DNA from: Desulfobulbus propionicus DSM 2032
Lineage (GTDB): Bacteria > Desulfobacterota > Desulfobulbia > Desulfobulbales > Desulfobulbaceae
Direction: 5' to 3'
DNA: 32,000 nucleotides
NCBI RefSeq assembly: GCF_000186885.1
Contig: NC_014972.1
Location: 1,290,001-1,322,000 of the forward strand
Shown piece by piece: positions 29,776-31,851 of this stretch; the stretch's first letter is position 1, and each line of letters begins with the position of its first letter. Under the pieces are notes generated by a model. It had not been told where the DNA came from and did no database searches. It saw only the letters and a list, made by a program, of their open reading frames with translations. The translations under genes and the position numbers were made by a program.

Positions 29776-30400
29776 GTAGGTTGGGGTGAGGAACGAACCC
29801 CAACACCATCATTCTCTTTCGCCATAGCCCCTTCTTTCGTTGTCGCAAATTCCACCGCCCCAATCGCCATCAATCATCCCCGCCGCGACATAACGGTGGA
29901 TGCTTGAATACGGCCAATCCGCAGCACGGGTCGCATGGCCATGTTTCACCGGATTGAAATGGATGTACTCCACATGTCTGGCAAAGTCTCCTTCGTCTCG
30001 GATGAGATGTTCCCAATACCGGCGTTGCCAGATGCCGCGTTCTTCTTTGCTCGTCCGGCTGGCGTTCCGGCGTTCCCCTTGGGGGATATACCGCGAGAAT
30101 CCTGCTTTGATGAGCATCCACCGTCCGGGGTAGTCCGTGTCCCCTGGTGGTAGCGTCCACATCGCATGCAGATGTTCGGGTAACACCACCATGGCGTCGA
30201 TGGTGAAGGGATGTCGTTCTTTTACCACGCCGACAACCTGACGAAGGACGTCAATGTATTCCACCAACAGGGACCGGTGTCGTTCCGCAAGATTCACGGT
30301 GAAAAAAAGGTGCCGCCATCAACCCGCGCGCGCCGGTATCGCATTGCATTCCTCCGGTTTTACGACACAATGTTGGGGTTCGTGCCTCACCCCAACCTAC
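29776..30400 (-). mobile_element. RAYT unit: REP-associated tyrosine transposase gene flanked by an inverted pair of REP hairpins
   Basis: GTAGGTTGGGGTGAGGAACGAACCCCAACA (29776..29805) and its reverse complement with one mismatch (30371..30400) bracket the gene. Each copy is an 8-bp hairpin (GTTGGGGT/ACCCCAAC). Confidence 0.75.
29809..30344 (-). pseudogene. REP-associated tyrosine transposase (IS200/IS605 Y1 family, RAYT) with a frameshift in an A7/T7 run
   Basis: The body carries HUH (VLPEHLHAMW) and the catalytic Tyr region (VEYIHFNPVKHG). The true start ATG 30344 (SD GGAGGA) gives MRYRRARVDGGTFF and then hits a stop. One extra T in the T7 run (plus-strand A7 at 30302..30308) would restore GGTFFFTVNLAERHRSLL. 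Confidence 0.75.
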
Positions 30401-30550
30401 CTTGCTACCTTGCTCAACCAGGTATTTCTCACAAAAATCCAGATAGAAACGGAGCCACTTTTTGTAATGGATGTGATACGTGTCGGCAATGTTGTGGGCG
30501 AAAAGACACTCCTCGAAACGAGTCAGTAATGTAGCGGGAATTGAAATCAT
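30401..30550 (-). pseudogene. Truncated N-terminal fragment of a tyrosine recombinase, probably the integron integrase
   Basis: MISIPATLLTRFEECLFAHNIADTYHIHYKKWLRFYLDFCEKYLVEQGSK resembles the N-terminal SAM-like domain of IntI (recalled IntI1: [33 protein letters not shown]). It is divergent from the cassette and roughly 220 bp from the attI-like crossover. The reading frame runs straight into the REP hairpin at 30400. Confidence 0.45.
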
Positions 30551-30740
30551 AGGGAATCTCGAAGACGGGTTATCCTTCCAAATGGAAGGATATACAGAAA
30601 AGCGGGTATTCAAAAACCATCGATTTGTCAATGACAATCTTTATAAATACTAGTAAGTAAGCCATGATATCGGCCTTAAACGCAAGGGCAGAGGAATGCC
30701 GGCACGAAAAACTCATCCCGGCCCGCTCTGCAAATCTAGA

Positions 30741-30773
30741 TGTTATACAGATCAGCAGAATAACTTGTTAGGC
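30741..30773 (+). other. attI-like recombination junction (GTTAT...ATAAC TT GTTAGGC)
   Basis: GATGTTATACAGATCAGCAGAATAACTTGTTAGGC has the core GTTAGGC (GTTRRRY) at 30767..30773, preceded by an RYYYAAC-like GAATAAC. It resembles my recollection of attI1 (GATGTTACGCAGCAG...CCTAAAACAAAGTTAGGC). Confidence 0.45.
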
Positions 30774-31655
30774 CCATCACCGGGCAAAATCGCAAACTGT
30801 AAGTAAGGGGGAACTTCATGGCGATGACAAAGTGTAAGGAGTGCGGAACCGAGATCAGTACCACTGCTGACGCATGCCCCAAATGTGGCGCAAAACAAGT
30901 GCGAACCTCTGGCTGTGCCAAGGTTGTTCTTGGCGTTCTCGGATTCTTCGTTTTTGTCGCAATTGTCGGACAATGCAGCCGTTCTGATACGAGCTCGCCT
31001 TCAACGTCAGCAACCTCTGCAAGCTCATCGTCAGCTACTGCAAAGCCGGCAGCGGCGCCAACCCCGCCTCCTCCTCCCGCCCCAGGGTCACAATGGCGCT
31101 ACGGCCAAGACGAAGACCCGATGGGCAAAGGCACAACTCTGCTGGCTCAGGTAACAAGCACAAATGTAGTGCTGTTTGATTCGCCGTATGGCGGGCCTCA
31201 GCATGGAACACTTACTTTGCGCACCCATCCTCGTCACGGAAAAGACATCATTCTCGGCATTGAGCGCGGGCAGTTTCTTTGCCGCTCTTACGAGGATTGC
31301 AATGTTCTCGTGCGCTTCGACGATCAGAAAGCGGTGACTTACGCTGGTGTAGGCCCTGCAGACAATAGTACTGAGTCAGTTTTCATCCGTAACTACTCGC
31401 GCTTTGTCTCAAACATGCTCAAGGCCAAGCGGGTACGTATCTCAGCTGAGGTGTACCAAGAGGGGGCGCCCGTATTCGAGTTTGACGTTAGCGATTTCAG
31501 TGAGGCCAAGTACAAGGGCAAGCAGTGATTCTTGCATCACCGCGGGTGGGCCTAACAATTCGTTCAAGCCGAACTTGCTTCGTTACGGCAAAAGCGTGGC
31601 AGAAACAGCTTGCCACGCTTTTGCCTCCACTACGCAAGTCGGCTTAACTCAGGCG
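30768..31655 (+). mobile_element. Integron gene cassette (888 bp) with one ORF and its attC
   Basis: The cassette starts TTAGGC and ends ...CTCAGGCG. Circularising it gives R-prime GTTAGGC, the exact complement of the attC R-double-prime GCCTAAC at 31550. Confidence 0.75.
30818..31528 (+). CDS. Cassette-encoded hypothetical membrane-anchored protein (zinc ribbon, TM helix, Ser/Pro-rich linker, ~140-aa C-terminal domain)
   Basis: ATG 30818 follows GGGGGA. CKECGTEISTTADACPKCG is a CxxC-N11-CxxC zinc ribbon, VVLGVLGFFVFVAIVG is the TM helix, and SSPSTSATSASSSSATAKPAAAPTPPPPPAP is the linker. GC content is visibly lower than in the rest of the window. Confidence 0.75.
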   Translation: MAMTKCKECGTEISTTADACPKCGAKQVRTSGCAKVVLGVLGFFVFVAIVGQCSRSDTSSPSTSATSASSSSATAKPAAAPTPPPPPAPGSQWRYGQDEDPMGKGTTLLAQVTSTNVVLFDSPYGGPQHGTLTLRTHPRHGKDIILGIERGQFLCRSYEDCNVLVRFDDQKAVTYAGVGPADNSTESVFIRNYSRFVSNMLKAKRVRISAEVYQEGAPVFEFDVSDFSEAKYKGKQ

Positions 31656-31661
31656 TTATCC
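31550..31661 (+). other. attC (59-base-element type) integron recombination site, 112 bp
   Basis: R-double-prime GCCTAAC is followed by L-double-prime AATTCGTTCAAGCCGA. There is a central 15-bp perfect stem (31587..31601 / 31611..31625), then L-prime TCGGCTTAACTCAGGC and R-prime GTTATCC. The arms are almost identical to the aadA1 attC arms as I recall them (CTAACAATTCGTTCAAGCCGA ... CGGCTTAACTCAAGCGTTA). Confidence 0.8.
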
Positions 31662-31662
31662 C

Positions 31663-31765
31663 GTTTCTGGTTATCACTCAGTGTTTCCAGCTTGAAGGTT
31701 CACGATTTACTTTTTTAGGTTTTCGCTCCCTGGTTCTCATGCGGTTTTGGAGGATAACCAGAAAC
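31663..31765. repeat. 13-bp inverted repeat carrying core-site-like GTTATC/GATAAC motifs directly after the attC
   Basis: GTTTCTGGTTATC (31663..31675) is the reverse complement of GATAACCAGAAAC (31753..31765). It is flanked by the direct repeat CGTTATCCC (31654) / CGTTTATCCCC (31766). Confidence 0.5.
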
Positions 31766-31851
31766 CGTTTATCCCCTTTGCGTCATGCAAATGGGCTTGC
31801 GTGCATTCAGTATCGGGAATGAATGACCAGCCCCTCCTTATCGAGCAATTC

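Follow-up and report, generated by a model that had tools for sequence, protein, structure and literature searches.

A probable sedentary chromosomal integron remnant with a single cassette left in Desulfobulbus propionicus DSM 2032

Integrons with an inactivated intI and the elements that remain after integrase loss, clusters of attC sites lacking integrases (CALIN) and single attC sites lacking integrases (SALIN), are well described (Cury et al. 2016, PMC4889954; PMC9024848; 10.1101/2022.09.11.507474), and IntegronFinder 2 by default calls a CALIN when at least two attC sites occur without an integrase (Neron et al. 2022, PMC9024848). We analysed a 32,000-nucleotide stretch of the Desulfobulbus propionicus DSM 2032 chromosome (NC_014972.1, positions 1,290,001 to 1,322,000; hereafter the window) and consider its segment at 30.4-31.66 kb to be, with a probability of roughly 0.9, the remnant of a sedentary chromosomal integron with one cassette left. 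The locus has in common with the described elements a divergent intI/attI arrangement, a G|TT crossover, a structured attC and integrase loss. It differs from them in that only one cassette is left and in that an intI remnant and attI still lie side by side, unlike in most CALINs, about 95% of which are not near a recognisable intI pseudogene (a figure quoted by Loot et al., 10.1101/2022.09.11.507474); moreover, the break lies at a repetitive extragenic palindromic (REP) element with its REP-associated tyrosine transposase (RAYT) gene, and not at an insertion sequence or transposon. Compared with a complete integron, intI is reduced to 48 codons, so that the locus falls short of a complete platform. 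A preliminary description made from the sequence had proposed a chromosomal integron with a destroyed integrase, and the intI stub, the attI junction and a complete cassette with its attC were each verified independently, all the features that it named being present where it had placed them. Decay of this kind is known and ordinary, and the locus itself does not overturn current understanding.

The intI remnant corresponds to the first 48 codons of the gene (MISIPATLLTRFEECLFAHNIADTYHIHYKKWLRFYLDFCEKYLVEQG; 30407..30550, minus strand), with its ATG at 30550, and the rest, about 400 codons in intact relatives, is gone. When the 652 six-frame pieces of the window were searched with a hidden Markov model (HMM) of the N-terminal domain, built without the window sequence or its close relatives, the only match was 30407..30550 on the minus strand (65.5 bits, E ~1e-19), spanning HMM positions 1-48 of 85. 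At its N-terminus a Desulfobulbus sp. IntI shares 63% identity with the fragment over 43 aa (E = 4e-13). Searches of Pfam, NCBIfam and PDB sequences with the 51-aa fragment itself were negative, and a word-indexed protein search with it returned just two relatives, equally truncated; the fragments of the related species are 83-85% identical to that of the window. Full-length integrases, used as tblastn queries against the window and the adjoining 10 kb on its right side (L001), detected neither a second IntI remnant nor any sequence of the core or catalytic part. The start codon lies 217 bp from the crossover, in divergent orientation, in line with the distance of about 220 bp given in the preliminary description.

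A phmmer search with the 69-aa version of the fragment from the sister species (P0002) gave 1,132 proteins at E <= 0.001. The long matches have TIGR02249 (integron integrase) as their best family, the part resembling the query being residues 1-65 and the integrase profile starting at residue 142-217. These long-form integrases consist of an N-terminal domain of about 85 aa, a Pro/Ser-rich low-complexity linker of 55-130 aa, a canonical PF13495 domain and a catalytic domain, and the extra N-terminal domain itself matches PF13495 (phage integrase N-terminal SAM-like domain) weakly (25 bits, gathering threshold 27). Like the canonical integrases IntI1 and VchIntIA, they pass TIGR02249 and sit divergent beside attC arrays, but they differ from the canonical integrases by the additional PF13495-like domain and linker. 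Complete examples are a 453-aa open reading frame (ORF) of Syntrophus buswellii DM-2 and a 502-aa ORF of a Desulfobulbus sp. metagenome-assembled genome, which score 384.5 and 400.1 bits, respectively, on TIGR02249 (cutoff 265). The preliminary description was thus right that the fragment is a piece of an integron integrase, but what is preserved is the first half of the extra N-terminal domain and not an ordinary IntI N-terminal domain. The long-form family was seen in at least 579 candidate genome stretches, with a median of about 470 aa, mostly in Desulfobacterota, Nitrospirota and anammox Planctomycetes and in some Gammaproteobacteria; example loci are L075 10001-11362 and L026 10001-11509 (from the set L017-L096). 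A set of 80 genome loci contains 81 N-domain motifs; downstream of 49 the catalytic box follows in frame, and about 30 run into a premature stop, although a few of the latter may only have a variant catalytic box. Judging from these reading frames, truncated long-form intI genes appear to be common.

Between the intI remnant and the cassette lies an intergenic region (30551..30767) that is conserved in two species and ends at the crossover base G30767. In an alignment of five contigs, which represent two D. propionicus strains and the related species, the sequences agree up to ...AATAA(C/A)TTGTT and then enter four unrelated continuations. A slightly diverged D. propionicus strain (L003) is identical up to ...AACTTGTT and then carries a different sequence, GTGTGTAAAAGG..., which encodes a methyltransferase-like fragment before a scaffold gap. 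The related species has the same REP, intI remnant and intergenic region, and beyond ...TTGTT it carries two more unrelated cassettes, one of 192 aa and one of 324 aa, the latter with an attC of its own (ATCTAAC...GTTGTCC). Four continuations behind one conserved junction mark the junction, therefore, as a recombination site; by this comparison of contigs the position 30767|30768, beside intI and divergent from it, is the putative attI.

The left half of attI ends in ...AGAATAACTTG. When this half (30757-30767) is placed next to the flank that follows the attC (31656-31665, TTATCCCG...), a perfect short palindrome, ATAAC-TT-GTTAT, forms around the crossover, and the join AGAATAACTTG|TTATCCCG plausibly represents the core that attI had in its ancestral, empty state. 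A repeat search of the intergenic region also revealed a perfect 10-bp hairpin between the intI start codon and attI (30571-30580 with 30583-30592, TATCCTTCCA..TGGAAGGATA), a 13-bp palindrome, TTGTCAATGACAA, at 30625-30637, and direct repeats, TATACAGA..AGC, at 30591-30603 and 30744-30756. The sister species keeps the positions of the hairpin and of the palindrome, and both are candidate regulators of the integrase gene, for instance as an operator.

The gene cassette (30768..31655, plus strand, 888 bp) extends from the TT of the attI crossover to the G of its own R' box. GTTAGGC is present at 30767-30773, and placing G31655 in front of TTAGGC (30768-30773) gives these seven bases again, R'' being their exact reverse complement, just as the preliminary description had argued for a G/TT junction. 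Homologues of the cassette ORF, with 66% nucleotide identity and the same attC type, were found in two metagenome contigs (L124 and L097). The local alignment of window 30767-31656 with L124 420-1308 (reverse complement) is bounded by the two G|TT points, and the L124 cassette is preceded by a 60-nt attC at the place where the window has attI. Being found in two contexts, with homology that stops at the crossover points, the 888-bp unit bears the classical signature of a mobile cassette.

The attC that closes the cassette occupies 31550..31661 (plus strand, 112 nt) and is composed, in order, of R'' GCCTAAC (31550-31556), a spacer AATTC, L'' GTTCAAGCCG, a 15-bp central stem (31587-31601 paired with 31611-31625 in the repeat search), L' CGGCTTAAC, a spacer TCAGGC and R' GTTATCC (31655-31661). 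While R'' fits RYYYAAC, R' departs from GTTRRRY in its right half, which is expected because those bases lie beyond the cleavage point, predicted to fall between G31655 and T31656. Folding of 31545-31666 gave energies of -31.7 and -34.2 kcal/mol for the two strands (z = -5.9, with 0 of 200 shuffles as stable), and the bottom-strand fold leaves a single T and a single G unpaired (...AAG[T]TCGGCTT[G]AAC), a pattern known from the extrahelical bases of the aadA7 cassette attC. Pairing of the R boxes in an unconstrained minimum-free-energy fold was tried as a criterion for attC sites and dropped, having missed the window attC and several known attC sites.

For a search by covariance we built a model, R1, from six attC sites, leaving out the window site and aacA7. 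Its members are the attC sites of blaOXA-10, blaVIM-2, aacC1, aacA4 and blaVIM-1 (class 1 integrons, plasmid records L014-L016) and that of a cassette of the sister species (L012), trimmed to their ends and with the R box and L box pairs supplied as structure. R1 matched 31550..31661 on the plus strand exactly and across the full model (46.9 bits, E = 1.3e-9), and it recovered all known attC sites. As a control, in the 80 long-form intI loci all of the 30 matches at E <= 0.01 are on the strand opposite intI, and all those listed are upstream of intI, which is the correct integron geometry. The R and L boxes, the unpaired bases, the R1 score and the covariation described below point together to a genuine recombination site. 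The complete attC architecture put forward in the preliminary description was borne out in this way by the boxes, the stem, the model and the folds of both strands. That description had also held that its reading would fall if the covariance match were not significant or if no further attC lay downstream: the match is significant, but at E <= 10 R1 found no second attC, either within the window or over the next 10 kb on the right. The lack of further sites does not refute an integron origin, because the platform is recognisable without them from the truncated intI and from the breakpoints at attI. Searched at gathering thresholds, Rfam gave no attC match across the whole window.

This attC closely resembles one of clinical provenance. 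A BLAST search against plasmids matched 4,310 records, 218 of them with at least 80% query coverage at about 90% identity, the best matches having 90.2-90.4% identity over 112-114 nt; in annotated regions the matching sequence is the attC that directly follows aac(6')-Il (aacA7) in class 1 integrons. The two sites share the 112-nt architecture, the unpaired bases and, up to GTTA, the sequence of the initial 37 and final 34 positions, whereas the differences in the central stem are mostly compensatory. The cassettes themselves are unrelated, aacA7 carrying an acetyltransferase and the window cassette a membrane protein, and the R' of the window is GTTATCC, unlike that of aacA7, because the window cassette is the last one. 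Ghaly et al. 2021 (PMC8352920) placed the aacA7 attC in the 'Xanthomonadales-like' class, and 99.4% of such sites in complete chromosomes were found in Xanthomonadales (PMC8352920). By its homology in sequence and structure to the aacA7 attC, the window site belongs to this aacA7-type class, although its host is a Desulfobulbus and not one of the Xanthomonadales.

A scan of metagenomes in which only the inner L-box extensions were required yielded at least 136 sites, with at least 101 distinct central regions, in at least 120 contigs (L097-L216), from which at least 115 distinct 112-nt aacA7-type sequences were extracted. In 102 distinct sites of this family, 94.9% of the cells are paired, compared with at most 43.5% when the partners are slid; 9 of the 15 central-stem pairs are changed on both sides, and double-changed cells number 280, against 8-49 in the slid controls, helix 2 being fixed by the search pattern and carrying, for that reason, no covariation information. 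Several members differ from the window central region at one position only. The aacA7-type sites sit in large arrays that mix attC classes of 60, 107/108, 112 and 117-119 nt, with 154 covariance-model matches in 163 kb (example contigs of the 112-nt family are L135, L144, L149 and L190), and two of the family contigs, one of 1.02 Mb, carry a short-form intI 52-55% identical to IntI1. The aacA7 gene itself is on only 1 of the 120 contigs among the matches listed.

The right flank, from the attC to the flavin reductase gene (31656..31851), begins with TTATCC, which presumably is the original right half of attI. Not one of the 115 distinct family members among the matches listed has the R' sequence GTTATCC, most having GTTAGGC there, and its absence from the family fits TTATCC being non-cassette DNA, and the window cassette being the last and only one. 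After 190 bp of non-coding sequence come a convergent flavin reductase gene and genes for a CitMHS transporter, an isochorismatase, NAPRTase and other housekeeping functions. The flank also has an inverted repeat of 13-14 bp (31662-31675 with 31753-31766, CGTTTCTGGTTATC / GATAACCAGAAACC) that encloses 77 nt, starts one base past the R' box and occurs nowhere else in the window; motifs like GTTATC recur around it. Its interpretation as a second, degenerate attC was rejected, given that the order is GTT...AAC instead of AAC...GTT and that the covariance model gave no match. With one attC and no functional integrase nearby, the locus counts in formal terms as a SALIN with an intI remnant next to it, and the CALIN-like state suggested in the preliminary description does not hold, only one attC being present in the window and the 10 kb rightward, which is a SALIN in IntegronFinder 2 usage (PMC9024848; 10.1101/2022.09.11.507474).

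At its truncated end the intI remnant stops 6 bp from a 26-nt REP copy (30375..30400, plus strand), and the break in intI is thus located at the REP, as the preliminary description, which saw the fragment cut off by a REP hairpin, had it. A second copy, GGGGTTCGTTCCTCACCCCAACCTAC (29776..29801, minus strand), lies inverted on the left flank of a RAYT gene (29809..30297, minus strand; NCBIfam NF047646, E = 1.2e-49, 167.9 bits, cutoff 80); the two copies differ by 1 mismatch, with 0 chance matches expected in shuffles. A RAYT gene between two inverted REP copies is the arrangement of REP/RAYT systems in general, and the difference here is that one REP is the breakpoint of a truncated integrase gene, of which no report was found in the literature. 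Relative to L002, the RAYT gene of the type strain has a 1-nt deletion at 30308 in an A-run (GAAAAAAAGG vs GAAAAAATAGG) that removes the first 16 residues (MRYRRARVDGGTYFFT), and in other strains the gene is intact, encodes 178 aa and extends to about 30345. Either the type-strain gene is a pseudogene or the base loss is a sequencing error.

The truncation at the REP is present in all five aligned contigs, and the junction is common to the contigs of the sister species (L011-L013), one of which keeps 64 codons of intI and two of which have a further 54-bp in-frame deletion. The extra intI deletions of the window and of L012 and L013 have different left junctions and the same right endpoint (before CTCAACC), and at 30401-30419 the window has a tandem CTACCTTG duplication at the deletion endpoint. 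Single-nucleotide polymorphisms (SNPs) in L013 are mosaic: they agree with L012 further left and with L011 close to the junction, a pattern that suggests homologous recombination between strains within the attI region.

Based on the established integron mechanism, it is reasonable to propose the following history. A long-form IntI would have been transcribed leftwards from 30550 and would have recombined the folded bottom-strand attC of a circular cassette with the double-stranded attI, cutting between G and TT. The insertion would have put the 888-bp cassette, made of Despr_1166 and its attC, at G30767|T30768, leaving the original right half of attI (TTATCC...) behind the cassette attC. Comparison with related arrays shows that the cassette was imported from an environmental pool using the 112-nt aacA7-type attC and did not arise in this lineage, because neither the long-form IntI arrays nor the sister species have attC sites of this type. 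In a later phase of decay, intI lost everything past codon 48, with the break at the REP beside the RAYT gene. In its present state the locus presumably cannot move its own cassette, and Despr_1166 would in effect have become a stationary part of the chromosome, barring the supply in trans of a compatible integrase.

Several points weigh against this interpretation or narrow it. The R1 model is home-made from six trimmed sites, one of which, aacC1, has the same end motifs as the window attC, so that the match is not fully independent. The putative function of attI is read from comparative breakpoints only. REP/RAYT activity may have caused the truncation, or the REP may merely lie at the deletion endpoint. 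The search for intI covered the window and 10 kb rightward. Finally, a scan for sigma-70 consensus sites on the plus strand of 30300-30820, crude and untuned to Desulfobulbus, gave no promoter site, and since it came up empty between the intI remnant and the ORF, any expression of the cassette is hypothetical.

The same observations can be read in another way, namely that the platform is decayed and not dead, its orphan attI still gaining and losing cassettes through an integrase acting in trans. The five contigs have the same REP|intI truncation and yet four different sequences after GTT, and the sister-species contigs L012 and L013 share the 54-bp intI deletion while holding different cassettes. 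However, a passage of an earlier report (PMC2095811) states that attI is recognised only by its cognate integrase, and none was found for D. propionicus in the window or the adjoining 10 kb; furthermore, the SNP mosaic of L011, L012 and L013 implies that homologous recombination could shuffle cassettes together with the truncated allele without any integrase. For this reason cassette exchange after truncation is no proof of a trans-acting integrase, and continued activity of this kind seems possible but doubtful.

Loss of a resident integron also has to be set against the possibility that none ever resided here, a single cassette having been inserted at an ordinary genomic site (attG) to give a SALIN. 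This route has been shown experimentally (10.1101/2022.09.11.507474), and it would agree with the single attC, with the housekeeping genes to the right and with the occurrence, alone in another genome (L225), of a homologous cassette with a single 60-nt attC. The remnant of the IntI N-terminus 217 bp away, divergent as is typical of integrons, speaks against it, as does a junction that is conserved in two species with four different cassettes and is in this respect attI-like, not a one-off target; we regard insertion at an attG site as very unlikely. That the attC, which lies just past the stop codon and is ~90% identical to a clinical site, is a chance palindrome, a terminator or contamination from a clinical class 1 integron is hardly credible, given that the site has neither a T-tract nor a terminator call, that the R and L boxes fit the covariance model, that at least 23 independent contigs contain the locus, that the 10% divergence from aacA7 is largely compensatory, that the ORF is not a resistance gene and that no attI1, intI1 or 3' conserved segment (3'-CS) sequence is present. 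Having weighed these alternatives, we retain the decay of a resident chromosomal integron as the origin of the locus.

The cassette gene, Despr_1166 (ADW17336.1; 30818..31528, plus strand), encodes 236 aa and is not a resistance gene. It has 666 homologues, in which the full length of about 235 aa is conserved, and because these keep the full length, including an N-terminal zinc ribbon and a transmembrane helix, the 236-aa reading is right and not the 135-aa RefSeq version (WP_043769719.1). The AlphaFold model (predicted local distance difference test, pLDDT, 78; above 90 in the C-terminal domain) shows a zinc ribbon, one transmembrane helix, a disordered Pro/Ser linker and a beta-rich C-terminal domain, and in a structure search this last domain was weakly similar to Bartonella IalB (3dtd, E = 5e-4, template modelling score 0.55, 10-12% identity). 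Part of the homologues are ordinary chromosomal genes without an attC. The homologue in L225 (4187-4976, 72% identity) is followed by a single 60-nt attC (47.5 bits), and homologues with 112-nt and with 60-nt attC sites imply that members of the family have been made into cassettes with attC sites of more than one type. The isolated L225 cassette adjoins genes that resemble those of phages or integrative elements (Prim-Pol, serine recombinase).

Other genes of the region include Despr_1165, a TauE/TSUP gene, and Despr_1162, encoding an HRDC helicase; four proteins of the window, those of Despr_1166, Despr_1165 and Despr_1162 among them, match D. propionicus DSM 2032 proteins exactly. At 98.9-100% identity, the integron-remnant locus recurs in at least 23 contigs from metagenomes or genomes. 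The G+C content is 0.43 at 30350-30800 (intI remnant and attI), 0.50-0.57 in the cassette ORF and 0.48-0.52 at 31.55-32.0 kb, compared with 0.55-0.61 upstream; the drop reported across 30.5-31.9 kb in the preliminary description is real, but it is narrower and mainly concerns the intI/attI segment. Our literature search found no paper on an integron of D. propionicus, on long-form IntIs or on truncation of intI by REP/RAYT elements.

Elements with a single attC tend to be set aside as potential false positives or ascribed to insertion at genomic sites. Here the survival of the intI stub and attI makes it possible to see directly that such an element came from a resident integron through decay. 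The locus also documents the capture, in a cultured anaerobe and by an integron with a very different type of integrase, of a cassette whose attC type has been reported as nearly exclusive to Xanthomonadales and is shared with the clinical aacA7 cassette, and it provides a concrete system in which cross-phylum cassette flow and the attC range of long-form integrases may be tested. The occurrence of an aacA7-type attC in Desulfobulbus and the widespread family of long-form integrases are side findings that deserve follow-up. More tentatively, and on present evidence improbably, the integrase-less attI of D. propionicus might still function for docking, through a long-form IntI of the kind seen in anaerobic Desulfobacterota that acts in trans on aacA7-type attC sites, a family also represented on a clinical aminoglycoside-resistance cassette. 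If this were true, decayed integrons would be lasting capture loci, and sediment anaerobes would be linked to the clinical cassette pool.

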